Below are positions 1,289 through 20,095 of a stretch of DNA of 40,315 nt, in pieces. Position 1 is the stretch's first letter. The number at the start of each line of letters is the position of its first letter. Under the pieces are notes generated by a model. That model made no database searches. It saw only the letters and a list, made by a program, of their open reading frames with translations, and was not told the origin of the DNA. The position numbers and the translations under genes are program-made. The stretch lies in IMG/VR virus record IMGVR_UViG_2541047797_000007; one strand, given 5' to 3'. The DNA comes from a virus (lineage: Duplodnaviria; Heunggongvirae; Uroviricota; Caudoviricetes).

Positions 1289-1771
1289 CTATCTGGTCAG
1301 TGTGTCGTACTGTTTTTCGCAGACTCTTCCGGCTTCGGCTGCCCGGTCAGCATACTCTGCCAGTTGTCTGTTTCTCTCGAGAGATTTGCTGAGCACGTCG
1401 GCAAGCAAAACTCCGGTGTCTGCGGCTGACGTCCCAGCGCCGACAATGGCGTTATACTGCCTGAGCTGCTCACGGATGGCAAAGAGTTGTTGCTGCAACC
1501 GGCCAGCGCGAGCGGCAGCATCAAGAGCATCATTGCGCGCCTGGTCGATCCTCTGCTGAGCTTCACGTTCATTGGCCACTTTCTCCTGTTCGTAGTACTG
1601 ACGAACTTTGTCTTCTTCGGCTTTGCGGTCTTCTTCCGCCTGCGCATACCCGGCACCGTACTGGCGACTGCCGTGTATATTCCAGGAAACCACTCCGACG
1701 ATGAACAGAGCAGCAAGCATCAACACAATAAGCATCTGTTTCCAATATGCTTTTACGAATGCCCAGATCAT
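1289..1771 (-). CDS. Rz-like i-spanin (lysis protein)
   Basis: N-terminal transmembrane segment followed by a charged coiled-coil region; 4-nt overlap (ATGA) with the upstream endolysin gene; an Rz1-like lipoprotein ORF is embedded in another frame. Confidence 0.75.
   Translation of the reverse strand: MIWAFVKAYWKQMLIVLMLAALFIVGVVSWNIHGSRQYGAGYAQAEEDRKAEEDKVRQYYEQEKVANEREAQQRIDQARNDALDAAARAGRLQQQLFAIREQLRQYNAIVGAGTSAADTGVLLADVLSKSLERNRQLAEYADRAAEAGRVCEKQYDTLTR
1297..1533 (-). CDS. Rz1-like o-spanin lipoprotein, embedded out of frame inside the Rz gene
   Basis: Internal Met of ORF 1297..1716 gives MMLLMLPLALAGCSNN... : signal peptide plus lipobox Cys, short Pro-rich mature part, wholly contained in Rz. 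Start position inferred. Confidence 0.6.
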   Translation of the reverse strand: MMLLMLPLALAGCSNNSLPSVSSSGSITPLSALGRQPQTPEFCLPTCSANLSRETDNWQSMLTGQPKPEESAKNSTTH

Positions 1772-2397
1772 ATAGCCAGCACCTTACTGGCAGTGACGTA
1801 CCGCGCGCGCCGGTCGTCGATGCCGTTCCGGCCACCATTGATAATCAGAGTTACACGTGCAATATCGCCGGTATACTTCATGCATCCTTTGCTGGCAAAG
1901 AACCACGCCGCGCTACGAGCCGCGTATTCGTCCTGCGCCAGCAGTTCAGGACTCTCCAGCAGGTCAACCTTAAGACCGTTTCCACAGTCACGATAGTTAT
2001 TCAAACCGGTAATCTGGATAAGTCCGCGACCACGGTAATTCCAGCCATCACCAGAGGCATTGTTACCCATGCGTTTGCTGTACACCAGATTTGCGATCGC
2101 GCGCTGGCGCTCGAGTGGCAATGGTGGCTCACCAGCACGGCGGCCCAGTGCGTTAGCCTGTCCCTGGGTGAGACGCCCAGCCCGAACGAAGTTAGCCAGT
2201 CCGGTGACGCTGTAGTTGAAATTTTCCTGCAACCGGTTGAAGCCACCAGACTCATGCCCGACCTGAGCAATAAACATTGCCTGATCTTCGGGTTTGCTGA
2301 TACCAAACTCTTTCATCGCAGAAGTTATATGCGAGAACCAGCGTGCGGCCAGCGCCTCGCTAATACCAGCAGCTCGCTGGAATTGTTTAATCTCCAT
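1768..2397 (-). CDS. Endolysin, glycoside hydrolase family 19 (chitinase-like lysozyme)
   Basis: Protein from MEIKQFQRAAG...: motifs FIAQVGHESGGF and NYRGRGLIQITG are typical of GH19 phage lysozymes. The ORF-track N-terminal extension (to 2628) is rejected; ATG at 2395-2397 gives 209 aa. Confidence 0.8.
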   Translation of the reverse strand: MEIKQFQRAAGISEALAARWFSHITSAMKEFGISKPEDQAMFIAQVGHESGGFNRLQENFNYSVTGLANFVRAGRLTQGQANALGRRAGEPPLPLERQRAIANLVYSKRMGNNASGDGWNYRGRGLIQITGLNNYRDCGNGLKVDLLESPELLAQDEYAARSAAWFFASKGCMKYTGDIARVTLIINGGRNGIDDRRARYVTASKVLAI

Positions 2398-2695
2398 GTT
2401 TAGACCTCGATATTTTGAAAATATGAACAACGTTACCGCGTGTTTTAATAACCGCGGCAAGCATGACAGCGTTGATAATGACCTCAGATAAATCCACAGC
2501 CATTGGCGTGCGTAACCAGATTGCATAGACGACACGAACAGGAATACTTGCCGCAGCAACAATAAGGAAATAAGCAAGCCACCCTCCCCATCTTCGATGT
2601 TGAGAGCCGTTACGCCGGAATGTGACAACGCGAATTGCTATGCCAGTACAAATAACTGCATTGGTGATAAGCAAAAAAAACTCATGCGTTACCAT
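2387..2695 (-). CDS. Small membrane protein in the lysis cassette (holin or antiholin candidate)
   Basis: 102 aa with 2-3 predicted hydrophobic helices; overlaps the endolysin start and the upstream membrane gene. Confidence 0.5.
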   Translation of the reverse strand: MVTHEFFLLITNAVICTGIAIRVVTFRRNGSQHRRWGGWLAYFLIVAAASIPVRVVYAIWLRTPMAVDLSEVIINAVMLAAVIKTRGNVVHIFKISRSKHGD

Positions 2696-3086
2696 CGTCT
2701 TTTCTCCCCGGAATTAACTCGCGTGGATTATCGGAACGGTGATAGAGCCAGATGCCAATACGCACGGCGACAATTGCTGACACGAATGCGCCTGCAGAGA
2801 AAACAATCCCTTTTTCAAAAGAGTCCTGCGTGATGGTAGGGATCAGGCTGGCTATGCCGATAAGAATTGATGCTGCTGGTTTGTAAAAGAGAAGGCCGCA
2901 AAGAAAGCTGAGCATCGACAGGAGCACCCGGCGACGGATGGGGTACTCTACTGCAGAGGTAACAAAAATTACCGCCCCAGCCAAAGCCCCTAAAGCAACC
3001 TCCGGAGGGACACCTGCAATAACCGCAGCAAGAGAACTAACACTAAGCCACTGATTTGAAGTTTCATTGGTTAGTTGGAATGACAT
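2682..3086 (-). CDS. Holin-like membrane protein
   Basis: 134 aa with several hydrophobic helices and a charged C-terminus, immediately upstream of the second membrane protein and endolysin. Confidence 0.55.
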   Translation of the reverse strand: MSFQLTNETSNQWLSVSSLAAVIAGVPPEVALGALAGAVIFVTSAVEYPIRRRVLLSMLSFLCGLLFYKPAASILIGIASLIPTITQDSFEKGIVFSAGAFVSAIVAVRIGIWLYHRSDNPRELIPGRKDDGNA

Positions 3087-3158
3087 AACGAAACCCGTTT
3101 ATTTGCAAACACCCTGCTTCAGGAAAAGTATACCGCGCAACAACACACCATTTACGGT

Positions 3159-5621
3159 TCAATTCCCTGTTAATTGCAAAACTTGCTCTTCCAGCTTTTT
3201 AACCCTGCGTCTCATCATCGCAGATTCCAGAATCAGAGCCTCTTCATAACGGATACCGTAACATTCACCAGCCTCGACGGCTTCGCGTACCAGAACCTTT
3301 GTCTGTATAAGTGGGTAAACTCCTGCAGAATGCTCTTCTTCCGTCACATCCCTGTATTCTGCCGGGGTCTCATTCCACTTGTCATAACAGATAAATGCCA
3401 GTCGTGACACATCTATGCCTTCATTCTGAAATACACTGATAACATGCTGCGCAACTGCACCAAAGTGCCATCTTGCTCCGTCTTTACCTTTCACTTCGAT
3501 CCTGTCAAGGTACTGGTATGAAACCCATTCCACTCTTTCCCATGCGTCCAGTATTTTCTCATCAATAACCTCTGGAGCAGTCTTGAAACGCGCATCGGAC
3601 AGCACCGTAAACGCTGACTGGGTAAATCCCCCCGACCATGCACGACCAGCCAACCCAAGAGAATAAGTATTCGTTGTCGATGGTGTCATGGCTGAATCAG
3701 AAAACTGTATATATTCTGAATTTCCAGTAGATATTCGAATATTTCCATTTATTAGCGACATAGTGCCTTTAGTATTATCACTATTGAATAATTTCAATTG
3801 CGAACTTATACCGCCTCCCACAGCCAGAGATACATCGCCTTCAGCAAGCATTCTGAATTTATCTGCAGAAACAAGCGTCTGGTTAGCAAGGTTAAAATAT
3901 TTAACCCACCATTCAAAACGCCCTGACATAGTCCCAACGTACTGACCAAGCGCAGGGACGTGAACAACATTGCTATTTGTAGTGCCGTCTATACTGGAAA
4001 TACCAGTCACCGCTGATGCAGAACTCAGAATATTATTTCTGTCACCCGGATGTTTAATTTCAACAAAGTTCCTGATACACCCTTCCTCGAAGGTAACCAC
4101 GCCGGAAGAACTATACATGGGGAATATTGACGCATAATTACTGCGTGCAGCATCTAAGAAACGAATGGTTGTAGATGTCTGCAGATCTCCTGATTCATTT
4201 TTCCCATCACACCCAGTCATTAGAATATTACTGGCAATATTATTATTTCCCTGAACGGTGACGCCGTGCGCCTGCTTTGCGTCCGATTCAGAGTAATCAA
4301 CCAGCACATCCGAAATCAGGTTACCAGTCCCCTTGCCAACAACTACTGCGGCGTATTTTGGGTTGTTAGCCATTACACTGCTAATGATATTATTCGTTGG
4401 GGCAGTTTCCGTCTCAGTTCCATTGTAAACAACGTGCTGACACTCTTCACCAATAACATTGCTGACAATGTTATATTTTGCTGCTGTTTTAAGTTCCACT
4501 GCACCAAACTGAGGATAATTTCTGGCTATCACACCATCAATTAGCGTATTTTGCGATGAATCAAAAAGCACACAACCTGCTTTTTTATTATTTGCGAACC
4601 CTAAATACTCTCCTCTTATATCTCTAACAATGTAACCTGACGGAATACCATTATCCGGATAAGCGATCAAGCTAAATCCTGGTCCTCGCGTATTTGTAAA
4701 TCTGATATTTTTAACCGATACATCATGGCCACCTGAAAATGACACCTGGTGTCCCTGCACACTATCATCTGATTTATTTCCCATAATTGTTAGCGTACTA
4801 AGCATGCCACCATCGGGCATGTTAAAAACCAGATGATTACCATCTCTGTCATACTGTTTTATCGTTCCCCCACCTGTTCCGTACAAGCCACAACGTGAAA
4901 GAGAAACTAAAGATGTATTGAATACCCCTTCCGGAACAAAAACACTGCTAAACGAATGTAATGATTTTGTAAAAGCATCCTTGTTATCATTTAAGATTCC
5001 ATTTTGAGCTCCAAAATCCTTAATGCTGACACCATCACGCATCTTATCCTGGAACGTTCTGTATACCGCTCCAGAACCATACTGAATAAACCAACCAAAA
5101 CCACCAATAACTCCGGCGATTGCAGCATCGACATAATTACGCATTGAGCGATTATTTACAGCGTCCTGCTCAAGTGATGGATCGGCAAGGTTAGATATTC
5201 TGTTTTGCTTTGCATCGTAATATTTTGCAAGCAAAGATGGTTTCATCAATGCACGTCTGAACCACCCAAAACATCGCTGGATCAGCATCGTCAGGTAGTC
5301 AAATGCATCCTCATGAACTTCGGGGAAAAATTTTCCCTGATTGCGAAGATCAGTCTCCTGCACCACATCAAGCACACGCTCTATCGTGATTCGCCAGCCA
5401 GCAGCAAGCGGCGACGGAAGAACCACTGCACCGCCACTATAAGTTCCCGCCCCTGTTACCGTATAACCAGCATCCAGCACTAGTTTTGTAACGTTACCGT
5501 TAAGGTCAGACACCTGAACAACCAGGTCGGATTTTTTGAAAATACGGAAGGTATACGGAAATGATGTCGTAACGCCGTTACCTGTGTATTCGTTGTGGTC
5601 AACTTCGGTTGAGACCGTCAT
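3159..5621 (-). CDS. Tailspike / tail fiber with conserved N-terminal particle-binding domain, central beta-helix-like region and C-terminal intramolecular chaperone (peptidase S74-like) domain
   Basis: N-terminus MTVSTEVDHNEYTGNGVTTSFPYTF is a conserved phage tailspike anchor motif; Gly/Asn/Ser/Thr-rich central region; C-terminal roughly 150 aa (..LSDARFKT...GARWHFGAVAQ..) resembles the auto-cleaving chaperone domain. SD GGAG upstream of the ATG at 5621. Confidence 0.85.
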   Translation of the reverse strand: MTVSTEVDHNEYTGNGVTTSFPYTFRIFKKSDLVVQVSDLNGNVTKLVLDAGYTVTGAGTYSGGAVVLPSPLAAGWRITIERVLDVVQETDLRNQGKFFPEVHEDAFDYLTMLIQRCFGWFRRALMKPSLLAKYYDAKQNRISNLADPSLEQDAVNNRSMRNYVDAAIAGVIGGFGWFIQYGSGAVYRTFQDKMRDGVSIKDFGAQNGILNDNKDAFTKSLHSFSSVFVPEGVFNTSLVSLSRCGLYGTGGGTIKQYDRDGNHLVFNMPDGGMLSTLTIMGNKSDDSVQGHQVSFSGGHDVSVKNIRFTNTRGPGFSLIAYPDNGIPSGYIVRDIRGEYLGFANNKKAGCVLFDSSQNTLIDGVIARNYPQFGAVELKTAAKYNIVSNVIGEECQHVVYNGTETETAPTNNIISSVMANNPKYAAVVVGKGTGNLISDVLVDYSESDAKQAHGVTVQGNNNIASNILMTGCDGKNESGDLQTSTTIRFLDAARSNYASIFPMYSSSGVVTFEEGCIRNFVEIKHPGDRNNILSSASAVTGISSIDGTTNSNVVHVPALGQYVGTMSGRFEWWVKYFNLANQTLVSADKFRMLAEGDVSLAVGGGISSQLKLFNSDNTKGTMSLINGNIRISTGNSEYIQFSDSAMTPSTTNTYSLGLAGRAWSGGFTQSAFTVLSDARFKTAPEVIDEKILDAWERVEWVSYQYLDRIEVKGKDGARWHFGAVAQHVISVFQNEGIDVSRLAFICYDKWNETPAEYRDVTEEEHSAGVYPLIQTKVLVREAVEAGECYGIRYEEALILESAMMRRRVKKLEEQVLQLTGN

Positions 5622-5740: not shown

Positions 5741-5817
5741 TTTGCAAAACGTGCTGGATAGCAAACAAATTATTTGATACTGTATAAATATACAGTTATT
5801 GCATGGAGAAGATTAAG

Positions 5818-6075
5818 ATGCAGCAGTATCACTATCCACTGGAAGAGGGATTTACCGAAAGGATTCACACGCCGGGAGGCGTCAGGTCACTGGTGGAGGG
5901 ATCGCACTTGATGAAATTACTCCGGGATCTCGATAAGGATGGATTTAATGTCGATGGCCCACTTGCCGAACTGACTGCACTGATTAACTACGTCACCAGC
6001 TCACAGATGTCTATGCAGGATCTGCAAACACATCTCGACTATTGTGCCGAACAATTACGAAAACAAACCAGATAA
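5818..6075 (+). CDS. Small protein homologous to the C-terminal domain of the downstream antirepressor
   Basis: Residues RIHTPGGVRSLVEGSHLMKLLRDL...ELTALINYV...QTHLDY align with Ant C-terminus [24 protein letters not shown]...ELTTMFCYI...QTHAEY. Start chosen at the second ATG (5818), which has SD GGAGAAG; the ORF track starts at 5803. Confidence 0.55.
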   Translation: MQQYHYPLEEGFTERIHTPGGVRSLVEGSHLMKLLRDLDKDGFNVDGPLAELTALINYVTSSQMSMQDLQTHLDYCAEQLRKQTR

Positions 6076-6106
6076 GGTTTGCAATTACCAAATGGAGTGC
6101 TTATAT

Positions 6107-6121
6107 TTACCTTTGCGGTAA
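6107..6121. promoter_or_regulatory. Operator-like site TTACCTTTGCGGTAA
   Basis: Perfect TTACC-N5-GGTAA, extended dyad ATTTACC...GGTAAAT, in the leader between the Ant-domain paralog and ant. Confidence 0.6.
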
Positions 6122-6210
6122 ATTTACATCGCACTCCTCTTGTGCCATAGTAATCGGGCACTGGCAAAATCCAGTGCCGGGATTGGTCTCCCGGATTACT
6201 AAGTGGCGCA

Positions 6211-6236
6211 TACCACGCCAGACGTGGTTTTTTTAT
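6211..6236 (+). terminator. Intrinsic terminator / attenuator in the ant leader
   Basis: Hairpin ACCACG-CCAGA-CGTGGT followed by TTTTTTTA; preceded by further stem-loops at 6140-6200. Confidence 0.5.
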
Positions 6237-6392
6237 GCGTATAGCACAGTCATGCCAGAATTATGGTGGGCTGAATGGGGGTCCGAAAGGACGCCGGTAC
6301 CACTTAGGCCGGTAAGACCAACTCCGTTCAGTTCACCACCATCTGATTGGTCTCAGCGGTGGTGATGTAATTCGCTAAGTGGAGACGCCATC

Positions 6393-7049
6393 ATGAACGC
6401 TCAACTCATCCCCGTATTCAACGGCACTATATCTAACGAAACAGCCCTACTTTGTAATGCCCGCGATCTGCACGCTTTTTTAGGTGTTAAAAAGGTGTTT
6501 GCAGCATGGATTACAAATCGCATATCAGAATACGAATTCATTGAAAATCAAGACTATATTTTGCTTTCCAATTTGGGAAAGCAAACATCTGGTAGAGGCG
6601 GCCACAACCGCAAAGAGTACCACCTCACCCTTGATACAGCCAAAGAGCTGGCGATGGTCGAGCGTAACGAAAAAGGTCGTCAGGTACGACGCTACTTCAT
6701 TGAATGCGAGAAACGTTTAAGACAACAAGAAACAAAAGTGGAGAAGGTCTTGTCAGGCTTCATGCCCGCCATTATGGAGGCGATCAAGCTGGAAGACAAA
6801 AAAGAATACAGTGCCCCGCTGAAGCCCGGCTACCGCAGCCTGATTCATTCGCCGTCTGGTGTTCTCGGCCTGACGGAGAACTCACTGCTGATGAATCTGC
6901 TGAACCAGTTACAGGAAGACGGGCACGACGTATCGGGCGCGGCGGCGGAACTGACCACCATGTTCTGCTACATCGTCGGTGTGAGCAAATGCCTGCGTGA
7001 TATCCAGACCCACGCGGAGTACATCAACGACAAGGCAGGGTTCTTCTGA
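6393..7049 (+). CDS. Phage antirepressor (AntA/AntB-type N-terminal domain)
   Basis: N-terminal region [36 protein letters not shown] matches the AntA antirepressor signature as I recall it; SD GGAG upstream; opposite strand to the surrounding late genes. Confidence 0.75.
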
Positions 7050-7174
7050 CAGAACGGCGGCACAGGGATGTGCCTTTAAATAATTCTGTACGATTGCAGA
7101 CAGGGGGGTGAATAGAGTACTATTACCTTACGGGTGATCCATAGCGATTAGGCACCGATACAGGAGGAGCCCAC

Positions 7175-7207
7175 ATGAGAAAATTTGACGAGTACGAAGG
7201 CGTTTAA
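7175..7207 (+). CDS. Possible 10-codon leader mini-ORF (MRKFDEYEGV) with strong SD
   Basis: AGGAGG at 7162-7167, 7 nt upstream of the ATG at 7175; lies between two operator-like sites upstream of the 211-aa gene. Speculative. Confidence 0.25.
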   Translation: MRKFDEYEGV

Positions 7208-7223
7208 CATTCGGATAGTTCAT

Positions 7224-7238
7224 TTACCCTAATGGTAA
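7224..7238. promoter_or_regulatory. Operator-like site TTACCCTAATGGTAA
   Basis: Perfect TTACC-N5-GGTAA, extended ATTTACC...GGTAAAT, 41 bp upstream of the 7279 start; a one-mismatch copy at 7124-7138. Confidence 0.6.
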
Positions 7239-7278
7239 ATCCCGCTTAAAGAAGCATCTATATATTATGAGGTGATGT

Positions 7279-7914
7279 ATGCCACAACAACTGCTGAATC
7301 CGGCAAAGGTAACTGAGGTTTTCGCTCATCTGAACGAAACTCCAGACAACCGCGCCCTGTATTCAGAGTTAGTGAACGGCAACGATGTCACATCTGATGT
7401 CAAAGGCGTTTCTCTGGCTCCTGGATACCGCGTTGTCCGTGTAGACGATCGTAAGAAAGGCGAGATTCCACAGGCGCACTTTGAACTGTCATTGATAAAT
7501 GACCTCACCGAAGAGGTAGTGTATTACAATCGTGTCATTATCCAGCCTGACAGCTATCTTAACTGCCGTCCTGTCACGCAGATATTGGTATGGAGAACCC
7601 AGAAGCCTAAGCATCGTGCTGTGCTTCATGATTTCGCCGGCATCATCTTCATGAACTACCTCTTGGAACGGTACGATATCATCGTGTCAGATCGCAACCA
7701 GACTCATGAAGGCATGTCGTTCTGGCAGGCTCGCATGTATGACGCACTGGAACTTGGCCTCCACCTCTATGGTTACGACATGATGACATGCGAGCTGATA
7801 GAGATGAATAACGAGGAAGAGCTTGAGAAAGGTGAAACCTGGTTGTGGGGTGATGCGGAAAACTTCCAAAACAGATTGGCCATAATTTCAAAGCATAAGC
7901 TGCCAATAAAATAG
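7279..7914 (+). CDS. Hypothetical protein (211 aa), moron with its own terminator
   Basis: SD GAGGTGA upstream; no motif I recognise; followed by an intrinsic terminator; embedded antisense in the late operon. Confidence 0.6.
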   Translation: MPQQLLNPAKVTEVFAHLNETPDNRALYSELVNGNDVTSDVKGVSLAPGYRVVRVDDRKKGEIPQAHFELSLINDLTEEVVYYNRVIIQPDSYLNCRPVTQILVWRTQKPKHRAVLHDFAGIIFMNYLLERYDIIVSDRNQTHEGMSFWQARMYDALELGLHLYGYDMMTCELIEMNNEEELEKGETWLWGDAENFQNRLAIISKHKLPIK

Positions 7915-7920
7915 TTCTTT

Positions 7921-7945
7921 AAGCCCGCGACGCGGGCTTTTTTGT
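7921..7945 (+). terminator. Rho-independent terminator after the 211-aa gene
   Basis: GC-rich hairpin GCCCG-CGACG-CGGGC followed by TTTTTTG. Confidence 0.75.
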
Positions 7946-7981
7946 GTCTGCGGATTCCCGCCCTGGCGGCGGTGGCATTCG

Positions 7982-8007
7982 TTAAAAACAAGGCCGCGAA
8001 AGCGGCC
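7982..8007 (-). terminator. Rho-independent terminator (minus strand) directly downstream of palindrome copy 1
   Basis: On the minus strand: GGCCGC-TTTC-GCGGCC hairpin followed by TTGTTTTTAAC; convergent with the plus-strand terminator at 7921. Confidence 0.7.
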
Positions 8008-8008
8008 T

Positions 8009-8020
8009 GTGACATGTCAC
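8009..8020. repeat. Perfect 12-bp palindrome GTGACATGTCAC, copy 1 of 3
   Basis: Exact match read from the sequence; overlaps the stop of the 8017..8313 gene and abuts the terminator hairpin. Confidence 0.9.
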
Positions 8021-8313
8021 GCTCTTTTTCTGAATGATAGCCATTCGAAAAATGATGACATTCCACCGCAGACAATAGCAAAGATGATCCCACCAAAGAA
8101 GAGAAGGCCAGCCTGCCACCACTCCCACCGCCATACATCCACAGCGCCAACCATACCAACAATCGCTCCAACAAATGGAATATAGCTCACGATGAAAGCA
8201 ATGGGGGCTGCAATTATCCAGTGCAATCCCCACCATGATTCAAGCCCAGCCATAATTGCTGCCAACTGAAAAAGACCAACGACGATATAAACAATGAATC
8301 CTATAGCTTGCAT
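8017..8313 (-). CDS. Small integral membrane protein (98 aa), possible superinfection-exclusion/immunity-type moron
   Basis: Three hydrophobic helices, Trp-rich; sits alone between the ejection-protein genes and the antirepressor island. Function is inference only. Confidence 0.55.
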   Translation of the reverse strand: MQAIGFIVYIVVGLFQLAAIMAGLESWWGLHWIIAAPIAFIVSYIPFVGAIVGMVGAVDVWRWEWWQAGLLFFGGIIFAIVCGGMSSFFEWLSFRKRA

Positions 8314-8508: not shown

Positions 8509-10983
8509 TTATTGCGGAGTGACATCCTGAGGTCGCCACCAGTATGTCTGGTTAAACTCTTTCTTCGAACGTTGCTCCATTTTACGCAAATAGCCTGGTG
8601 AAAAATACTCCTGCATCTGGTTAAAAATCATGTGATCGAGAGCCGCCTTCAAGTACCAGAGATTCGCACCTGGCATCAAACCTTTCCCCAGCTTCACCAA
8701 ATCACCACCAGTCTGCTCACTCTTCCCTTCCACAGCATTTAACGGTATGCCCTGAGCAATCTTCACTACGTCATCAACCAGACCAGCTACCGGGCCAAGC
8801 ATCGACGCCAGCGCGCCGCTTCCGTACCTAGTGTGATCTGACAATAAAAAGTCACCGTAAAGGCCAAGACCACCACCTTTCAGTAGAGCACCAAGCCAAA
8901 ATTTAGCAGCATCTTCTCCTGTCATCTCGCGAGGATTACGACCAGACGCAAGGTCGTTAAGTTGCTGCGACAAAGCGCCAAGAATGGTCGTACTGGCAAT
9001 AAACGTCGCAATATATGCCGCACGCCCACCAGCAGACGGCATACCCATAGCGCGTGACCAGTGACGCATAACCACCGAGATAGGGAACGATTTAAACAGG
9101 AAAACACTTCTCGTTAATTCACCTTTCCATGTTCCACGCTGAATACCAGAACCGGTTATCAGTTGCTCACGTGCTCCCGGTGTAATAACAGCCATATCAA
9201 CTTCTTCAGTTACGGCACCGAGCAGTTTACGCATTGCCTCAAATTTCACGCGTTCAGGCTCACCAAGATGTTTAACTGCTGAATCAGGGATACGCATAAT
9301 GCTTTCCGGTGTCAGCATCGTATTATTGCCGTTCCCCCAGTCCTCCTGTTGCGCCAGCTTCCATACGCTCCAGTCTGTGTCAGTAATCCCTTTGCTTTTC
9401 AGGATACGAAAATCAGAATCATCGAGGCTACGAAGGTCTGGTGTCCGTGACACTACTTCTCCCAGGCTTCCCATCATGGTTACGCCATAGGCGCGCTTGT
9501 GCGCATCTGACCATGCTGTAAGCCCACTGGCACGCATTACCGCCGTTGCAGCCCAACGAGACACAGACGGCCCCATATTATCCATCGCCCAGCGGTTAAC
9601 GCTGCCAAGTAGAGATTCCATCGCCAGACCAGCGCGGCGCGCCCGCGCAAGTTCTGTACGGTTCGTTGGGTCCATAGCTTCAAGCTGGTTGCGGAATAAC
9701 TGGTTCATTGGAAGGTTGGTAACCTTCGCAGACAGATACATGGTTCCAAGATCAGAGAACGATGACAGCAACGCGGATCCGAGTCTGCTGGCAACCAGCC
9801 AGTTGCGGATATTGTCAGACCATCGCGCGATGTGCGGATTCGCTACAGGCTGTGTCTTTCCGGAAATAAAGTTGTACAGATTCTCTGTGTTGTTCGCCAG
9901 CCGCTCGACTTTACCGGTTTTACTCGGGTTAGCTGTTGCCGTTTCTGCCTTAACCTGATCAAGAAGGGAGCGGAAAACATGATCGGGGTTTGGACCATAT
10001 GTTTCCACCAGAGCAATATCTTTACTGATACCTTCCAGGTGACCGACCATGATTTCCCATAGAGAGCGATCGCCATAAAGTTGTTGATATTGGAGATAGG
10101 AATCAGCATCTTTGAAATGTATCTGTCGTGATGCATTACCACGGTTAGCACGTGCGCCGGAAATTCGCATTCCGGTATCAGTAAGCTTATTCAGCCCACC
10201 AGTAGCGATCGTGTTATAAGCCTCTCCAAGAAATGCAGACAACTCGGCATCGTTCATCAGTTGTCCATCGGCTCGGGTATAATATTTGCGATCCAGCTTA
10301 CCTATAACATCGTTAACCCACTTATCCTTTGATACCGCCCCAACCTTTTCCATAGAATGATGTTGAGGGATCCCCCAGTTTTCGAGATAGCCAATGTCCC
10401 CACCAGCATCATTAAACCGGCGGCGCAGCAGCTCTGTAACTTCTCTCCACGCCTTAGCACCTTTTCTTGCTTTAGCATTGCCAGTATTTTGCCCCCGCAT
10501 TTCATATACCAGGTCACGTACGCCCGCTTCATCTTCAAACAGACCAAAAAAGCGAGGATCAACTGCTTCGAATGCCTCCTGCAATTGACTCAATGCATAA
10601 TCACGGGTGGCTTTTGTTCTGGATTCAACAGAGAGGAAATTAGATTTACCGTCTGCATTAAAAGCTATAGTACGGTTAAGAGCGCCAAGTTTCCCATCAG
10701 CCCCTTGATAGCTATTGATAAATTTATCCAATCTCTGACGCGCGGCTATAGTGAGAGCCACACGACGTTTCTTTAATGCCGCTTCTCGCTGTAATTCTTC
10801 AGATGCCAATTGTGCTGCTCGATATAGCCGCTCTGATTCGGAAAGTTGTCGCCACGACATCGGGTCATCACGAGCAATGGAGCGCATATTTCGATAAATG
10901 CGGTCTTCAATGTTCTGTATTTCTCGCGCCGTTAACATGCGCTGCGCCGCCTGCTGAACCGCCTGTATACATTCCTGTCTCAT
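8509..10983 (-). CDS. Large internal virion / ejection protein (824 aa)
   Basis: Last of three large consecutive, translationally coupled genes downstream of the nozzle genes; the position resembles podovirus internal core/ejection proteins. No specific motif recognised. Confidence 0.55.
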   Translation of the reverse strand: MRQECIQAVQQAAQRMLTAREIQNIEDRIYRNMRSIARDDPMSWRQLSESERLYRAAQLASEELQREAALKKRRVALTIAARQRLDKFINSYQGADGKLGALNRTIAFNADGKSNFLSVESRTKATRDYALSQLQEAFEAVDPRFFGLFEDEAGVRDLVYEMRGQNTGNAKARKGAKAWREVTELLRRRFNDAGGDIGYLENWGIPQHHSMEKVGAVSKDKWVNDVIGKLDRKYYTRADGQLMNDAELSAFLGEAYNTIATGGLNKLTDTGMRISGARANRGNASRQIHFKDADSYLQYQQLYGDRSLWEIMVGHLEGISKDIALVETYGPNPDHVFRSLLDQVKAETATANPSKTGKVERLANNTENLYNFISGKTQPVANPHIARWSDNIRNWLVASRLGSALLSSFSDLGTMYLSAKVTNLPMNQLFRNQLEAMDPTNRTELARARRAGLAMESLLGSVNRWAMDNMGPSVSRWAATAVMRASGLTAWSDAHKRAYGVTMMGSLGEVVSRTPDLRSLDDSDFRILKSKGITDTDWSVWKLAQQEDWGNGNNTMLTPESIMRIPDSAVKHLGEPERVKFEAMRKLLGAVTEEVDMAVITPGAREQLITGSGIQRGTWKGELTRSVFLFKSFPISVVMRHWSRAMGMPSAGGRAAYIATFIASTTILGALSQQLNDLASGRNPREMTGEDAAKFWLGALLKGGGLGLYGDFLLSDHTRYGSGALASMLGPVAGLVDDVVKIAQGIPLNAVEGKSEQTGGDLVKLGKGLMPGANLWYLKAALDHMIFNQMQEYFSPGYLRKMEQRSKKEFNQTYWWRPQDVTPQ

Positions 10984-10988
10984 TTAAT

Positions 10989-12791
10989 TTAACCTCTCAA
11001 GAAACACGCCACAGCGACATCAAACAGGCTGGAATCCTGTATTGCCTGCTCACTTTCCCTGTTCGCTTCATCCAGTACTTCACGCGCACTGCGCGATTGT
11101 GGATTACCATCATCATCCAGCACGGTGATTATCATGTCAGGTGATTCAAGCAGCGAGTCTTCAGCTATACGCAGATCAATATCTCCTGCCGGATCTGCCA
11201 TCATTTTTTGTTCTGTCTGTTGCAATATCTTACCGGGCTCAAAAGGAGCTACTTCGTCTGGCGTCCTGACCTCTGCTGTTTTATAGAATGAAACAGCCTG
11301 AGCATTAAGTTCACTTTCTGCCTGCTGTCGTCGTGCCAGTTCTGCTCGAGCTTCAAAAAACTGACCGCCAGGCTCATGCGGTGCCAACGCGTTACGGGAA
11401 AATTCCAGGCGCTCTTGTGCCTGCCGGATTCGTTGGTCAATATCGCGAAGTCTGACCTGTTTATCTGATCGAGCACGAGACAAAGCTTTACCGCTACCGG
11501 TTGGCTCTTCTGCAAGAATTTGTGCGCGCTGTTCAGTGAGATTTTCAATAATTCGTTGGCTATTAGCGATTTCAGACTGGTAAACCTGTCTATCGCCACG
11601 CGGCAAAAGCTGCGCGGCCTGTTCTTCAAGCAACCGATTTTCTATAGCGCGCGCCGTTACTCCATCATCTACAGATGACAGAGCCTCATTAACTGCCTGA
11701 GACAACAGACTCTTGCGCCCAGGAATTTCACTGAAAGATGCAGACTCAACAATGCTGGCAACGTCTACAGGTCTCCCCTGGCTAACATCAGACATAGCTT
11801 TTCGCAGAGCCTGAATGTGAGAATTGCGCGAAAGCACGTTGATCGGCACGCCGGGCGCAATATCAATTTCAGCATGATGAGCGGCATTCGCCGCCAGTGC
11901 AGCATCAACATCAACTGGTGAAAAATTTGGTGCGCTTGTAGACTCGCCGCGAGAGTTCATAAATCTGCCGACACCACCAAACGCCACCCCAAGAACAGCA
12001 TCAATAGCAATTGCCTGTCGATCCAACACATCATACTGGTTAGCCATTTCGCTATAGCCACCATCACGAAGCGTTTTTGCAGTAAGCCCACGCTGTGCCA
12101 TACCGAACGCAATATTTGTACCTGCGGCATAGGCAATATCTGGCGTTGCACGTACTGCTGTTGCTGCGGCGCGTCGCACTGAACTTTCACCCGTCCGCGC
12201 AAGCTGGGCCGCCACACCTTCCGCCAGCGCACCACCAGCACGTAACCCGAGGCTCATAGGGATCAGTGTTCCGGCACCAGCAGTAATACCCTGCACTAAT
12301 CCCGCTTCCTGCGCCGTCCTGAAATCAACACCCTGTGCTGTCAGCCGTTCAAACTCAGAAAAACCCTGTAGAGAAGTTACCGCCGCAGCACCTCCGACCG
12401 GACCACCGAGCGTTGTACCGACAACAGCCTGCCCTCCCATATCGAACAACCCATAAAGGACCTGCCCGGCGGTTCCGGTTGTCGCGGCATCAGGCGTCAG
12501 CCGCTTAACCTGCTGCTCTGCTAGTTTTCTCTGCTCGGCAATGTATGAAACTGAAGTGTCATTGAGCGAGGTGTTTTCGTTAACAAACTGAGCAATCGGG
12601 GATACGATTTTATCCATCCCTGCCCATAGCAACTGATCTGGCTTTGCCACCAGCCCGGAGTACAAACCAGACAATGCCGCTCCTACAGCATTGTCGAAAA
12701 AACCAACATCGCTGTTAAAGCCAGCTGGATTTGATGCTGCTTCGTCAAGCTGCTGATTCTGGTTTACTGGATTAAGGCCAAAGTAACTCAT
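10989..12791 (-). CDS. Internal virion / ejection protein (600 aa)
   Basis: Ala/Gly-rich protein; start overlaps the stop of the upstream gene (ATGA). Confidence 0.5.
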   Translation of the reverse strand: MSYFGLNPVNQNQQLDEAASNPAGFNSDVGFFDNAVGAALSGLYSGLVAKPDQLLWAGMDKIVSPIAQFVNENTSLNDTSVSYIAEQRKLAEQQVKRLTPDAATTGTAGQVLYGLFDMGGQAVVGTTLGGPVGGAAAVTSLQGFSEFERLTAQGVDFRTAQEAGLVQGITAGAGTLIPMSLGLRAGGALAEGVAAQLARTGESSVRRAAATAVRATPDIAYAAGTNIAFGMAQRGLTAKTLRDGGYSEMANQYDVLDRQAIAIDAVLGVAFGGVGRFMNSRGESTSAPNFSPVDVDAALAANAAHHAEIDIAPGVPINVLSRNSHIQALRKAMSDVSQGRPVDVASIVESASFSEIPGRKSLLSQAVNEALSSVDDGVTARAIENRLLEEQAAQLLPRGDRQVYQSEIANSQRIIENLTEQRAQILAEEPTGSGKALSRARSDKQVRLRDIDQRIRQAQERLEFSRNALAPHEPGGQFFEARAELARRQQAESELNAQAVSFYKTAEVRTPDEVAPFEPGKILQQTEQKMMADPAGDIDLRIAEDSLLESPDMIITVLDDDGNPQSRSAREVLDEANRESEQAIQDSSLFDVAVACFLRG

Positions 12792-15301
12792 TGCGGAATA
12801 TCTCCGGAGAATCTCTGACGCTTCTGTGTCAGATTAAGAACAACGGGAGAACCATCATCTTTCAGCAGATAACCAGTACCAAGTTTCACCAGGTACTGAC
12901 TATCGCCGTAACTTTGCAAACCATACTGACCAGGCGGTGTTTTTATCCCGGAGCCGACAACTTGTTCATTCCAAGCCTGATTAACCTGCTTATCGAATTG
13001 CTCCGCAGACATTCCCCACGGCAAAAGGACATTCCCCATTCCGTTATAGTCATGCACGCCACCTGTAGCTACGTTAACAGCCTGTTTCCAGACATCATTG
13101 TCAATTTCGCCTGATACCACGCCTTTTTTCGCCATCACACCAGCGTAATAATCCTTTGCGATCTCGTATGCCATTGATGCCCCCTGAGCGTCACCAGCAA
13201 ATGCATCCTTCACCATGTCAGAAAACTCAAGGCGAAGATCAGCATCTTTAGGCATCGGAATACCTTTCGCATCATCAGTACCTTTACGAGCCGCCGCGCC
13301 AGCAAGAATTGTCTGCGCAGCGGTTTCAGGAGACACGGAAACATCCGGATTAAACCAGTTTTTTTCTGCCAAAATACCACCTGGCTTATCCATCAGTATC
13401 CCGGCAACGGCAGCAGATGGAGCGTTGGCACTGATCTGCTGTAGTGCTGACATATACACCTGCCCACCACCAGTGCTCTGCCTGATGGTATCGAGATATG
13501 CTGCCTGTTGGGAAACTGGAGCATCACGAAAGAAAACACCGATCTGATTGGCCTCGTCTTTGGAAAAGAACGTCAGTGGAGTGCCATATGACTTAGCAAG
13601 GTCACTGACCTGAGCGGCACGCAAGGCAACGCTCTGTCCAAAGTTATCCTTATTGCTCATGTCGATAGGCTTTGCCTGTCCGGCGGCAAGAGAGAACTGC
13701 ACAGGATCCGATTGCCGCTGCTTTATCACCTGATTTGCAGCCGAAACAACGTTGTCATAAAGAGCTGCGCGTGCCGCATACCCCTCCCCTGTCTCACCAG
13801 TATCCGGGCGTAATTGCTCAACATATGCTGTAATGCTGCTTGTCGGCATGTTGCGGAAAGAGCCTATATACTGTCCGGCGATTTGCGTATTTCTGAACTC
13901 GGTATATCGCAGGTTTCCTTCTCTGACTCCATAAGCTGCAATAAAATCAGCCTCACCAGGTGGGTTAGGAAATTCAACGCCACGCATATACGCAGATGTC
14001 GCATCGCGAACTTGGCTGTCAATCATCGTTTTATATTCAGCCTGCTGCTGCCGACGCAGTTGATCCGCCTGTCGCATAAAACTTGCCTGCGCCTCAGGAG
14101 ATGCCGCATCGAATGCTGCATTACCGGTATAGCGTTTGGTGTTGGTTGGAATTGTTGATAAACCAAGTGCTGCACTGACACCAGCAGTTAACTGCTGATC
14201 ACTGTATGGCTGGCTACCGTTCTCATGATGGATAATGGCTGCACAAAGCGCCTTCAGGGTATCAGGATTAGATGCATCGAGAGGCTCATCAGCAGAAACG
14301 CCAAGTTGTTCGCACACTGCTTTGATATACGACATAGTGTCATTTTTATCAGTAGGCGGTGCCCAGCGATTAATTATCTCGCTGACGGTATCGATACCCT
14401 GCCGCTGATACGACATCAGGTTACGCCCTAATGCACGAATCCCGTGCTCAGGTGTTTCGAATTTAGCAAATCGACCATCATCACCGGTCTGGCCTACCCA
14501 CGGATTAGTTTTGCTGTATTCGAGATTTCCTGGGTTATTGTTGCGTATGCCACGGGCACGCTCGGAAGAGTCATTATCTGCTACAGCACGGCGAGCTCCA
14601 GCAGCAGTATCACTTAACTCGCCATTACTTTGGATGAATGCGGTCGCATTGTTTGCCGACCACTGGGACAATGCGGCATCAGCAACCTTCTCTTTAAACT
14701 CGATTTTCTTGGCCTGTATTTGCTCGTCGCTCCAGCCATGCGCAACGCCGTAATCCTCAATTTGCTGGAAAGTTTGCTTATTAGCCAATACGTATGCGGC
14801 GTTGTCGCCATACAATGCTGCGGCATTTTTACCATTGTTCAGCAGCGTCGCCTGAAACTGGCCTTCTTCGTAGGCATTTATTTGCCCTATCTCGTGCCGC
14901 CCGGCCTGCGTAGTGAACTGAATGCGCTGCTGCTGCGCCTGCTGCATGAAAGCATTACGAGCCTGTTCATCCGGCAGCGACATAGCCAGTTGCTCGACCT
15001 GGGCATCAAACTGCTGCGTATACTCCTGACCTTTTCCAATAGCATTTTTCCCTTTCAGGTTAAGCAATCCTGTTTCAGGATTATTCAGCAGATCACTGCT
15101 TATCTGACTGAGGTTAAGAGATGCCTCCTGAGCCAGAGCGATATTGGCACGCTGTTTTGCCTGCCCCAAAACATCAATTGCCTCTGTCCCTGCCCGAACA
15201 AAAGCATCACTAATACCTGGCTGAGAAAACGTCTGCAAGCCTGCTGACTGAACTCCACGACTCTCAACCTGACGTCCGGATACTGTTGGTACGACTGGCA
15301 T
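12788..15301 (-). CDS. Large internal virion protein, possibly with a cell-wall-degrading region
   Basis: Start taken at the internal Met whose ATG overlaps the upstream stop (TAATG) rather than the track start at 15376. Contains segment RNNNPGNLEY...HGIRALGRNL; a cell-wall hydrolase role is a weak inference. Confidence 0.5.
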   Translation of the reverse strand: MPVVPTVSGRQVESRGVQSAGLQTFSQPGISDAFVRAGTEAIDVLGQAKQRANIALAQEASLNLSQISSDLLNNPETGLLNLKGKNAIGKGQEYTQQFDAQVEQLAMSLPDEQARNAFMQQAQQQRIQFTTQAGRHEIGQINAYEEGQFQATLLNNGKNAAALYGDNAAYVLANKQTFQQIEDYGVAHGWSDEQIQAKKIEFKEKVADAALSQWSANNATAFIQSNGELSDTAAGARRAVADNDSSERARGIRNNNPGNLEYSKTNPWVGQTGDDGRFAKFETPEHGIRALGRNLMSYQRQGIDTVSEIINRWAPPTDKNDTMSYIKAVCEQLGVSADEPLDASNPDTLKALCAAIIHHENGSQPYSDQQLTAGVSAALGLSTIPTNTKRYTGNAAFDAASPEAQASFMRQADQLRRQQQAEYKTMIDSQVRDATSAYMRGVEFPNPPGEADFIAAYGVREGNLRYTEFRNTQIAGQYIGSFRNMPTSSITAYVEQLRPDTGETGEGYAARAALYDNVVSAANQVIKQRQSDPVQFSLAAGQAKPIDMSNKDNFGQSVALRAAQVSDLAKSYGTPLTFFSKDEANQIGVFFRDAPVSQQAAYLDTIRQSTGGGQVYMSALQQISANAPSAAVAGILMDKPGGILAEKNWFNPDVSVSPETAAQTILAGAAARKGTDDAKGIPMPKDADLRLEFSDMVKDAFAGDAQGASMAYEIAKDYYAGVMAKKGVVSGEIDNDVWKQAVNVATGGVHDYNGMGNVLLPWGMSAEQFDKQVNQAWNEQVVGSGIKTPPGQYGLQSYGDSQYLVKLGTGYLLKDDGSPVVLNLTQKRQRFSGDIPQ

Positions 15302-15846
15302 TATAATCCTCCGGGTAATCTGGTTCCTGCTGCCGCCCCGATTGGCGCAGGGGTGCTTTGAGTAAACGGACTCCACGTCCCACCAAACATCTGGTACGCA
15401 CCGTATGCCTTCAGAGGCGCAGTGAGCAATGTTGTTGCTGCTCCCACATTCCCCTGTTTACGGGCTGAACTGGCTTCTGCTTTATAGTTGGCAGCCTGAA
15501 CCTGATAACCGTAAGCCTCGCGTTGCGCGTTATTCACCGTCGTTAGCGAATCAAGAGCGCCAAACTGAGCAGTGTCACCAAATATATCCAGCGCGTTACC
15601 TGTAGATAAATCAGCGCCGGTCGCCCCCATTGTCGCCGCCTGTGTACCAAGCCGCTGTCGGGTCTCTCTGCGCCGTTGCTCAGCTTCAGCGTTACCTCTG
15701 TTTATTGCATCATTTGCCTGAGCTGTGGCTATATCTGCGTTCGCTTCTGCAACCTTCGAGGCATACTTTCCCTGTTGGTACTGGGTGTATGCCTGAATGC
15801 CACTCATGGCGAGCATTGCGCCACCAGCAATAACCGGATCGCACAT
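15301..15846 (-). CDS. Internal virion protein (181 aa, Ala/Gly-rich)
   Basis: Coupled within the structural operon; low-complexity A/G/Q-rich sequence as seen in podovirus core proteins. Confidence 0.45.
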   Translation of the reverse strand: MCDPVIAGGAMLAMSGIQAYTQYQQGKYASKVAEANADIATAQANDAINRGNAEAEQRRRETRQRLGTQAATMGATGADLSTGNALDIFGDTAQFGALDSLTTVNNAQREAYGYQVQAANYKAEASSARKQGNVGAATTLLTAPLKAYGAYQMFGGTWSPFTQSTPAPIGAAAGTRLPGGL

Positions 15847-16310
15847 TATTTTCTCTCCATGTGAAATCTGTGGAAATTAAGACCAAGAGCACCATAAGGC
15901 GCGGCTTCTTCAAGCCTGAATCCAAGCCAGTGCAGCCATGCTTTGGCAACATGGTTTCGCTCGTCGACGTAGTTTTCCAGGCGCGGATAAACTGCCAGCA
16001 TCTGCTGCAATACAGGGCGGCAGTGGCGCAGAAATGTCTTCTGATATTTTTCAATACGGCTGGTTCCGACCAGCCAGGGCGTACCATTGCCACCGATCAT
16101 TGACGCCGGAGATACACCAAACATGGTTACCAGTTCTCCGTTCGCGAACCCTGACCAAGCCATAGTCGCAGTGCGAAGACCAACACGCAGCGCATCTTCG
16201 GTAGTCATCAGCGATACCGCATACAGTTCGTCAATATCAGCCTGACGAACATCCGGCAAAATCATCTGAAGATGCTCTTCGGTAGCGGGAATAATTTGAA
16301 CATCAATCAT
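15846..16310 (-). CDS. Structural-module hypothetical protein (154 aa)
   Basis: Translationally coupled (1-nt overlaps on both sides) between the nozzle protein and the internal proteins. Confidence 0.45.
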   Translation of the reverse strand: MIDVQIIPATEEHLQMILPDVRQADIDELYAVSLMTTEDALRVGLRTATMAWSGFANGELVTMFGVSPASMIGGNGTPWLVGTSRIEKYQKTFLRHCRPVLQQMLAVYPRLENYVDERNHVAKAWLHWLGFRLEEAAPYGALGLNFHRFHMERK

Positions 16311-18772: not shown

Positions 18773-19380
18773 CAGGACAACCTCGCAATGGTAAACTCGT
18801 CAACCGGTGGCTGTGGTTCCTGTGATTCATTCTGGCTATGCGAGCCAGCACTAAGAATCACGCGATTGTACATATTGAGGGCAAACGTACCGAGGTCTGC
18901 ATTCCCAGTCAGCGCCATGTTAATAGCTGCCGCAAGACGCCAGGCCAACGCCTCCATAAAAATGGCATCAAACATGTTCACATCTGAAACGCGAGAGACA
19001 TACTTGAGCCATGCCTGAGGCTGGTCTGTGTAGATCAACTTTCCTGTTCCGTTGGTGTCTGCACCAACTTCGTACTGAACGCGCATTGCTGCTGTTGGAT
19101 TGCGTACACCAGGAAGCATAATTTCAGTAATGCGCAGACAATCGGACGGGTACTGGTACGCATATTCCCAGTCAGGCGGTGGATTGCTCGTATCTGCAAG
19201 CGCCACGCGTTTGGTAGCAAAGTTCCAGTCAAAATCAGAAAGAACGGCATCACGGCAGGCCTCAAAGTGCAGCGAACATTCCCCCGCTTCCTTGCTGGCT
19301 TCCGTCAGGCTGTTAATACTGCGGCTGTTGCCAATATTGGACAGCGCACGATTACAGATCTCTACTACAGAGGCCATCAC
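18772..19380 (-). CDS. Tail tubular protein A-like (adaptor/nozzle) protein, 202 aa
   Basis: Position and size immediately upstream of the 820-aa protein; coupled overlaps. Confidence 0.45.
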   Translation of the reverse strand: MMASVVEICNRALSNIGNSRSINSLTEASKEAGECSLHFEACRDAVLSDFDWNFATKRVALADTSNPPPDWEYAYQYPSDCLRITEIMLPGVRNPTAAMRVQYEVGADTNGTGKLIYTDQPQAWLKYVSRVSDVNMFDAIFMEALAWRLAAAINMALTGNADLGTFALNMYNRVILSAGSHSQNESQEPQPPVDEFTIARLS

Positions 19381-19706
19381 TCACCTCCGTTACCGTACAG
19401 AGTTTCAGCCGCTGATTTTTCTACATCCCTGGAAACAGGAGCGATCGCCATATCAGTGATCTGCAGATCGGCGCTGCGATTAACACCATCGTCAGTTTCT
19501 CTGGCAGACAGGCCTCGAATAACAGCCTTTGCAGTTATCATCACTTCTGTTCCGACGCCCTGAGGTTGCGCCTTCAGCTTATTCAATGTGTCGTTATTCA
19601 GCGTGATGCACAGCCCCCACGGGTATTCATCGCGAGTTCTGGTTTCTCCGCTCTCATCCTGGTAGCTGTCAGTGCCGGTTTTGAGGTTTACGAGTTCCAT
19701 ATACAC
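19377..19706 (-). CDS. Structural-module hypothetical protein (109 aa)
   Basis: Coupled ORF in the head-tail region. Confidence 0.45.
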   Translation of the reverse strand: MYMELVNLKTGTDSYQDESGETRTRDEYPWGLCITLNNDTLNKLKAQPQGVGTEVMITAKAVIRGLSARETDDGVNRSADLQITDMAIAPVSRDVEKSAAETLYGNGGE

Positions 19707-19750
19707 TCCTGCAATAAAGGGGCCGAAGCCCCTTGTCTCATCCGCGAGGC

Positions 19751-20095
19751 TTACACGCCCAGTTCTTTACGCTTATCTGCGATCTTCTCGCGTAGCGTTT
19801 CTGCTTTGGCGTTATGGTGTGGCTTCTCGTTAAAGAGCAATTCGTACTCTTCACGGAGCTTATCCAGTTCACCATCATCTGACACATCGTTGATGATTTT
19901 GGTGCTGGTTGCTGCCATAGACACCTTTCCTGCTACCTTTTCTTTTGCCTGTCTGGCTGCATCGTTAACAGGTTCCAGTGCGCTACCAGGCTCACCTTCG
20001 TATTCGATTTCTGCCCCCTCCGGCCACAGAGTGTTATGGATATGAGAGAGGCGCAGAACGCGGTATCTTGGTTTCTCACCTGACATAAATATCAC
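19751..20095 (-). CDS. Structural-module hypothetical protein (114 aa)
   Basis: ORF in the head module with a charged C-terminus; the true start may be an internal Met. Confidence 0.4.
   Translation of the reverse strand: MIFMSGEKPRYRVLRLSHIHNTLWPEGAEIEYEGEPGSALEPVNDAARQAKEKVAGKVSMAATSTKIINDVSDDGELDKLREEYELLFNEKPHHNAKAETLREKIADKRKELGV

Follow-up and report, generated by a model that had tools for sequence, protein, structure and literature searches.

K5 lyases, ElmA among them, are one of the four phage families with a chaperone domain (PMC8326128). ElmA, described as a lyase (eliminase) of heparosan, comes from a prophage of E. coli K5, and polysaccharide-degrading activity is on record for its exact sequence, UniProt P77039 (PMC12834895; PMC9595387; PMC3594737). 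According to PMC3594737, which cites Legoux 1996, the enzyme was first detected in a K5 strain, as a chromosomal activity. Unsulphated regions of heparan sulphate are also cut by K5 lyase, and binding to mammalian heparan sulphate is described for a related phage domain (PMC7885116).

Among solved structures, KflA, the 632-residue K5 lyase tailspike of coliphages K5A and K1-5 (PDB 2x3h; GenBank Y10025), shares with ElmA a beta-helix, stalk and S74 chaperone (57% identity) together with the proposed catalytic residues and the cleavage dyad. At its N-terminus KflA has only a short peptide, about 30 residues long, by which it docks on an adaptor protein of a lytic SP6-like phage, whereas ElmA has a 200-residue epsilon15-type anchor, appears to belong to a temperate phage and has 17 extra residues inserted into its chaperone domain, around residues 750-775. 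The best PDB match by sequence is the 843-residue tail spike of T7-like Kayfunavirus-type coliphages (PDB 9vvr; E 6e-225, ElmA residues 192-814), which has the same lyase and chaperone modules, but at its N-terminus a domain of the T7 gp17 type (PF03906) where ElmA has the epsilon15-type anchor. The anchor is related to that of epsilon15 gp20 and phiV10 p25 (68-70% identity to these tailspike N-termini over ElmA residues 1-165), and the genome position is the same; the centres of these two spikes target O-antigens (of Salmonella group E1 and E. coli O157) and are unrelated to the centre of ElmA. The last 146 residues are homologous, with their Ser/Lys dyad, to the endoNF chaperone (3gw6), GA-1 gp12 (3gud) and the Peptidase_S74 family of MEROPS and Pfam, while the cargo differs: a beta-helix lyase in ElmA, a beta-propeller sialidase in endoNF. 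An endosialidase reading of ElmA was rejected, as the chaperone domain alone is common to both.

The window, by which we mean the whole analysed stretch of 40,315 nucleotides (IMG/VR record IMGVR_UViG_2541047797_000007), holds the following features.

3159 to 5621, minus strand: elmA, complete gene for the tailspike / heparosan (K5) lyase precursor of 820 residues (open reading frame and identity to P77039)
5022 to 5621, minus strand: N-terminal virion-anchor module of the epsilon15/phiV10 type, residues 1 to about 200
3927 to 5021, minus strand: catalytic lyase domain, a right-handed parallel beta-helix of about residues 201-565 that includes F372, E376, K378, H396 and Y399
3600 to 3926, minus strand: stalk at the C-terminal end of the mature spike, region of trimerisation, about residues 566-674
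3159 to 3599, minus strand: Peptidase_S74 intramolecular chaperone, residues 675-820, with predicted self-cleavage at Ser675 (partner Lys680)
1289 to 3086, minus strand: lysis cassette directly downstream of elmA, with two holin-like genes, a GH19 endolysin and a DUF2514 spanin (Pfam)
8509 to 27303, minus strand: virion and packaging module with terminase, portal, capsid, tail and injection proteins (DNA identity, PHROG, annotation of MLI109)
39059 to 40315, minus strand: integrase at the far prophage end (Pfam Arm-DNA-bind_3 and Phage_integrase)

Judged by sequence identity, the tailspike gene of the window is that of ElmA, the E. coli lyase that acts on N-acetylheparosan (the K5 capsule). 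A single open reading frame on the minus strand runs from an ATG at 5621, with a Shine-Dalgarno-like GGAG 7 nt 5' of it, to a stop at 3159, and its product is identical to P77039, 'Eliminase', at 820 of 820 residues. ElmA is an already known and experimentally characterised enzyme, an ordinary protein and not a new one. Of 5,426 complete E. coli genomes, 68 carry the gene, with a DNA identity of 99.7-100%. A scan for promoters and terminators around elmA gave none above shuffled expectation. The identity to P77039, the homology and fold, the conserved residues, the prophage context and the co-occurrence with kfi genes were computed here; the heparosan lyase activity comes from the literature, and homology is the basis of what we say on self-cleavage, trimerisation, virion attachment and prophage inducibility.

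The preliminary description of this gene had proposed a conserved N-terminal anchor and a C-terminal intramolecular chaperone around a Gly/Asn/Thr/Ser-rich centre, likely a beta-helix polysaccharide depolymerase, and all three modules were recovered. These four residues make up 36.8% of positions 150-650, versus 26.8% of the N-terminal part and 15.1% of the C-terminal domain. The centre is homologous to that of a characterised K5 lyase tailspike: identity to KflA is 57% over the 617 residues 201-817 of ElmA, and PDB 2x3h is matched at E 2e-184, a value that, like the one for 9vvr, lies well outside what chance would give. Lack of a beta-helix fold had been named as a finding that would speak against a depolymerase; structure prediction and a Foldseek search of the centre returned that fold. 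Residues 196-565 were modelled by AlphaFold as all-beta with pLDDT 80-97, and the best PDB match of the model is again 2x3h (Foldseek E 4.5e-43, target TM 0.78, 60% identity), so that the predicted fold is the single-stranded right-handed parallel beta-helix of K5 lyases. Pfam Beta_helix gives a weak match at residues 278-437. Up to residue 675 the stalk can be aligned with the C-terminal section of the mature chain in the KflA crystal; the low confidence of the stalk in the monomer model is expected, because its strands would intertwine in a trimer.

The catalytic residues of KflA, as reportedly proposed by Thompson et al. in 2010, are Glu206, Lys208 and Tyr229. The residue types of KflA at these positions agree with this assignment, and E376, K378 and Y399 of ElmA align with them. 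All 14 of the K5-lyase-type sequences compared have E376, K378, F372 and Y369, and 13 of the 14 have Y399. The proposed catalytic Glu/Lys/Tyr of KflA is conserved in ElmA, conservation being the property that was examined.

For the chaperone, Pfam Peptidase_S74 (PF13884) matches residues 675-735 at E 1.4e-13 (51.3 bits against a cut-off of 22), and two chaperone domains of solved structure, 3gw6 and 3gud, are matched by the C-terminus, 3gud with a Foldseek TM of 0.88. S675 is invariant in 31 homologues, D676 and K680 are present in at least 90%, and K680 in 30 of the 31, which places the Ser...Lys dyad of intramolecular chaperones (CIMCD) at the domain boundary. S675 and K680 align with Ser911 of endoNF (mutated, an Ala in the 3gw6 crystal) and Lys916, and in the crystal the mature chain of KflA ends at the serine aligned with S675. 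By analogy, the ElmA chaperone would cleave itself off and be released after the trimer has folded.

The N-terminal module has closer relatives than epsilon15 and phiV10: over residues 1-199 it shares 94-95% identity with tailspikes of the E. coli podophages EC.W1-9, phiv142-3, ZX5 and HEMP4, and the module is found at 80-100% identity in tailspikes with unrelated centres. It is the anchor domain shared by Uetakevirus tailspikes. PHROG 1171 is matched by residues 1-280, and the tail-fibre N-termini in PDB 28lx/8ck1 by the module at E 6e-30. In the AlphaFold monomer model the anchor has low confidence, and neither it nor the stalk gave a usable structure.

The surroundings of the gene point the same way. 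elmA is flanked by a moron block and the lysis cassette and takes the position of Uetakevirus tailspikes, between the virion module and the lysis cassette. The gene order of the cassette is that of phiV10 p27-p30, and the DNA of the virion and packaging module is 97-98% identical to phiV10, phiv142-3 and ZX5 (98% for the phiV10 virion genes); these genes were annotated with the help of MLI109, which carries an equivalent prophage. A difference from phiV10 lies just after the spike, where phiV10 has an O-acetyltransferase gene and the window has 72 nt only. The prophage is about 39 kb long, apparently complete, phiV10-like (Uetakevirus) and adjoins host yfgI; it encodes a repressor, replication genes, RecET-like genes, an integrase and the lysis cassette. 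No tRNA was found in the window, which ends at the integrase gene. We consider it very probable that ElmA serves as the tailspike of a temperate podovirus of the phiV10/epsilon15 kind (Uetakevirus) that has integrated next to yfgI.

A different reading of this context is that the prophage is defunct and the host keeps ElmA as a domesticated enzyme, a capsule-trimming or -shedding lyase that controls the length or release of heparosan chains. That the activity first came to light in a K5 strain, as a chromosomal one, would agree with it, as would the result that the whole elmA gene occurs in none of the isolated phage records in the collection searched, and that in MLI109 the early region of the prophage has been replaced by IS26/Tn3/tet(A) while elmA is still identical. 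However, the window prophage looks complete at the size of phiV10, has its integrase, repressor, replication, packaging, virion and lysis genes, holds no insertion sequences, and shares 98% identity in its structural genes with isolated phages. ElmA moreover retains its virion-anchor module, without a secretion signal, and half of its carriers have no K5 capsule to trim. We therefore regard domestication as very unlikely, and return to the tailspike of a temperate phage.

As to what this spike recognises, the preliminary description left a choice between O-antigen and capsule, and of the two it is the capsule that stands: P77039 is an eliminase, the substrate is K5 heparosan and not O-antigen, and the chemistry is beta-elimination by a lyase and not hydrolysis, the activity being taken from the literature in both respects. 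The distribution of the gene was compared with that of the K5 capsule gene kfiC in the 5,426 complete E. coli genomes. The elmA centre was found in 68 of them and kfiC in 269 (301 with either), and kfiC was present in 36 of the 68 elmA-positive genomes (53%) versus 233 of the 5,358 elmA-negative ones (4.3%), as raw counts in which clonal relatedness is uncorrected. This co-occurrence fits with the K5 capsule as the putative receptor. The association with K5 hosts is a partial one: kfiC is absent from 47% of elmA carriers, so present-day hosts often appear not to be K5. Many of the carriers are ST131-like.

The carriers without kfiC could be accounted for by a shifted specificity, in which the same fold acts on a different or additional glycan, such as another capsule or those domains of host heparan sulphate that are N-acetylated and unsulphated. 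An identity to KflA of just 57% would leave room for this, and the described action of K5 lyase on unsulphated heparan sulphate is in its favour. Yet the sequence is that of the enzyme used in the literature to cut heparosan, replacement of the capsule locus after lysogeny is a simpler explanation of non-K5 carriers, and the analysis yielded no sign of another substrate, which makes a shifted specificity highly improbable. The proposal that ElmA is a beta-helix glycoside hydrolase tailspike (P22, HK620 or GH28-like) directed at O-antigen has practically no chance of being right, since the resemblance to HK620, Det7 and CBA120 tailspikes and polygalacturonases is one of fold (Foldseek E 1e-6 to 1e-4), with HK620, P22 and polygalacturonase structures at 9-15% identity versus 60% to the lyase 2x3h, the weak Pfam PF12708 match reaches 13.6 bits against a cut-off of 27 and so gives no family-level assignment to GH28-like or P22-type enzymes, the exact sequence is a characterised eliminase, the lyase-family residues are conserved, and elmA co-occurs with K5 capsule genes.

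With ElmA as a K5 heparosan lyase spike, the following course can be proposed. The protein would be made as the 820-residue precursor, whose S74 chaperone would drive trimerisation and folding of the stalk and then cut itself off at Ser675, with Lys680 as the general base. The mature trimer would join the tail via the N-terminal module of about 200 residues and cleave the capsule polymer by beta-elimination, so that the virion could tunnel through the capsule to the outer membrane. In lysogens, ElmA released on spontaneous induction may degrade the host's own heparosan. A bolder extension, which we hold to be unlikely, is that the prophage is a live K5-specific temperate podovirus whose spike, released by lysogens, acts on unsulphated domains of human heparan sulphate as a virulence or colonisation factor of ExPEC such as ST131, and that the non-K5 carriers record recent phage-driven capsule switching.

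The findings on ElmA leave the understanding of tailspikes unchanged; what the analysis does is to place elmA in an apparently intact phiV10-like prophage. ElmA is in use for sizing heparosan on the way to bio-engineered heparin, and K5-lyase spikes are in use to retarget phage particles to K5 E. coli. The present RefSeq label, only 'tail fiber domain-containing protein', masks this characterised enzyme, and the link to its known activity is gone from current annotation. With about half of its carriers among complete genomes being K5, elmA can be a useful marker for capsule-phage ecology in ExPEC. The reference for K5 region 2 was that of Nissle 1917 in CP022686, CP007799, where kpsS abuts kpsT, being unsuitable; MLI109 carries, besides an identical elmA, kfiA-D laid out as in Nissle 1917.

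The tailspike gene elmA is a minus-strand reading frame of 820 codons that opens with an ATG at 5621 and closes at 3159; ORF calling in the window returned exactly the long reading frame of the preliminary description, with a GGAG motif 7 nt 5' of the start. An exact-sequence look-up in public databases identified the product as UniProt P77039, 'Eliminase', of E. coli, the same sequence being labelled elsewhere 'phage tail protein' and 'tail fiber domain-containing protein'. 'Eliminase', the elmA product, is the N-acetylheparosan (K5 capsule) lyase that Legoux et al. 1996 reportedly cloned from E. coli K5. A review (PMC3594737) has it as 'ElmA - prophage - E. coli K5'. A passage in PMC8326128 counts K5 lyases, 'e.g., ElmA', as one of four phage protein families with an intramolecular chaperone autocleavage domain. 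Since this exact sequence is P77039 and is described in the literature, the feature is already known and our finding is a rediscovery of a characterised enzyme.

The gene is surrounded by the following features:

1-1071, window start: host genes yfgH and yfgI
about 39 kb, from the yfgI side to the integrase gene: prophage
directly downstream of elmA, minus strand: lysis genes (two holin-like genes, GH19 endolysin, DUF2514 spanin)
5803-7914, upstream of elmA, plus strand: moron block with AntA antirepressor, virion genes beyond
39059-40315, far end of the prophage: integrase gene

PHROG matches in the prophage include a repressor, O/P-like replication proteins, RecE/RecT-like proteins, and tail and injection proteins, and the 19.5 kb from 8509 to 28000 are 97-98% identical to phiV10, phiv142-3, ZX5 and O157 typing phages 9 and 10. 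Gene content and identity make the element a Uetakevirus prophage of the phiV10/epsilon15 type that shows no obvious disruption and has exchanged nothing but the receptor-binding part of its spike. In phiV10 an O-acetyltransferase gene, for receptor modification and superinfection immunity, lies between spike and holin. Here only 72 nt (3087-3158) separate the spike stop from the first holin-like gene, and they hold no receptor-modifying gene. In some carriers the prophage may be dead and elmA domesticated by the host: in E. coli MLI109, whose related prophage keeps its virion genes and an identical elmA, IS26, Tn3-family transposons, tet(A) and pemIK have taken the place of the early region (NZ_CP117008.1 1408000-1432000). 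The present window, however, does not suggest such a reading.

The region between spike and virion genes (5803-8313) holds a 90-aa ORF, the AntA antirepressor gene (6393-7049), a 211-aa ORF (7279-7914) and, on the minus strand, a 98-aa hydrophobic ORF (8017-8313); Pfam gave no match for the 211-aa and 98-aa ORFs. MLI109 has other genes at this position, a YafO-family toxin and an ORF6N protein among them. In the MLI109 prophage and the O157 typing phages a tRNA-Arg also separates terminase from portal; there is none at 24258-25138, and a tRNA search found none anywhere in the window. In the early region, a 336-aa ORF (28331-29341, minus strand) matches phage 'phosphoadenosine phosphosulfate reductase' families (phrog_424, E 8e-85).

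Of 5,426 complete E. coli genomes, 68 carry full-length elmA (99.7-100% identity), in every case chromosomally; the whole gene matched no record in the phage collection searched. We searched the same 5,426 genomes twice, with the elmA centre concatenated to kfiC (the K5 heparosan glycosyltransferase gene, taken from Nissle 1917 assembly CP022686) and with kfiC alone, and derived the overlap from the union. As kfiC was found in 269 genomes, the elmA centre in 68 and either in 301, 36 genomes carry both. Thus kfiC occurs in 53% of elmA carriers versus 4.3% (233/5,358) of the genomes without it; with clonally related genomes counted individually, the odds ratio is about 25. This association fits the K5 capsule as receptor and agrees with the expectation that the centre defines the capsule type recognised. 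MLI109 has kfiA-D arranged exactly as in Nissle 1917. In the 32 kfiC-negative carriers the capsule locus was most likely replaced after lysogeny. A shifted or extra specificity of ElmA, for example towards host heparan sulphate, could be imagined, but nothing in this analysis supports it. It should be noted that another assembly of Nissle 1917, CP007799, lacks kfi region 2, kpsS abutting a shortened kpsT (NZ_CP007799.1 3427483-3430007), while kfiA-D are present in CP022686; CP007799 is either misassembled or from an isolate without a capsule.

Sequence comparison divides ElmA into three modules with separate evolutionary histories:

residues 1 to about 200: N-terminal anchor, by similarity to epsilon15/phiV10-type tailspikes
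about residues 200-674: lyase domain and stalk, by homology to K5-lyase-type spikes
residues 675-820: chaperone domain, Peptidase_S74 (PF13884, E 1.4e-13)

The conserved anchor proposed earlier was borne out: residues 1-165 share 68-70% identity with the N-termini of the epsilon15 gp20 and phiV10 p25 tailspikes, and residues 1-199 share 94-95% with four spikes that have other centres, those of E. coli phages EC.W1-9, phiv142-3, ZX5 and HEMP4. Two solved tail fibres, 28lx and 8ck1, match the module at their N-termini as well (E 6e-30), and in a large protein database it precedes centres of various kinds, among them GH28-like, peptidase-G2 and GDSL-esterase ones. Homologues of the lyase and stalk region, by contrast, are limited to K5-lyase-type spikes. 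KflA, the K5 lyase tailspike of coliphage K5 (GenBank Y10025, 632 aa), is 57% identical over ElmA 201-817, and among PDB sequences ElmA matches the KflA crystal structure 2x3h (E 2e-184) and an 843-aa tail spike, 9vvr (E 6e-225). The lyase module was found on at least six different N-terminal adaptors (proteins of 632, 755, 778, 784, 843 and 1,012 aa), including proteins named 'K5 lyase' by their depositors. G+C content is 41-44% at 3001-5000, under the catalytic and chaperone modules, versus about 50% over most of the window and the rest of the prophage, which fits acquisition of the module from elsewhere.

The centre had been described as Gly/Asn/Thr/Ser-rich and of beta-helix type. The described composition was confirmed: these residues make up 36.8% of positions 150-650, 26.8% of 1-165 and 15.1% of 675-820. 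The structure prediction and Foldseek search proposed for the centre were carried out on an AlphaFold2 monomer model built from a 31-sequence alignment, in which residues 196-565 have pLDDT 80-97 and short beta-strands throughout. Its top PDB match is 2x3h (E 4.5e-43, target TM 0.78, 60% identity), followed by the chaperone structures 3gw6 and 3gud and, at 9-15% identity, by the beta-helix tailspikes of HK620, Det7, CBA120 and P22 and pectin-type enzymes. Model quality is poor over the first 195 residues and the stalk (566-672), a limitation to be expected where chains intertwine in a trimer and a monomer is predicted. Of the two substrates first considered, O-antigen or capsule, capsule stands: a hydrolytic O-antigen spike is ruled out by sequence and fold identity, and the interpretation, sharpened to a K5 capsule lyase, is supported.

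For KflA, Thompson et al. 2010 reportedly proposed a catalytic site of Glu206, Lys208 and Tyr229, close to Phe202. KflA does have these residue types at the four positions. Throughout the catalytic domain a KflA position becomes the ElmA position on adding 170, so the ElmA counterparts are E376, K378, Y399 and F372. All 14 lyase-type sequences compared share E376, K378 and F372, and 13 of them have Y399. In the full 31-sequence alignment S675 is the sole invariant column, with D676 and K680 nearly invariant. Their counterparts in the endosialidase endoNF are, for S675, Ser911, which is Ala in the 3gw6 mutant, and, for K680, Lys916. The crystal chain of mature KflA stops at the serine aligned with S675.

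The S74 domain would guide trimerisation of the precursor, after which Ser675 and Lys680 would cut the chain and free the chaperone. What remains would be a spike about 674 residues long, kinetically stable and attached to the podovirus tail by its N-terminal module. The beta-helix groove would then bind heparosan and, by beta-elimination, cut the alpha-GlcNAc-(1,4)-GlcA linkage. Glu, Lys and Tyr of the conserved cluster would take part and the product would have an unsaturated uronate, so that the virion would digest its way through the capsule. Lyase activity is documented in the literature on this exact sequence; self-cleavage, trimerisation, virion attachment and prophage inducibility we infer by homology.

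An 820-aa variant, P0016, has 89% overall identity to ElmA and differs mostly at residues about 200-340, where the beta-helix makes its first turns. The tailspikes of PP445227.1 (EC.W1-9) and MT261384.1 (Salmonella PAT1) are also labelled 'eliminase'; they have only the N-terminal anchor in common with ElmA, and it is apparently by way of this anchor that they took the label of P77039.
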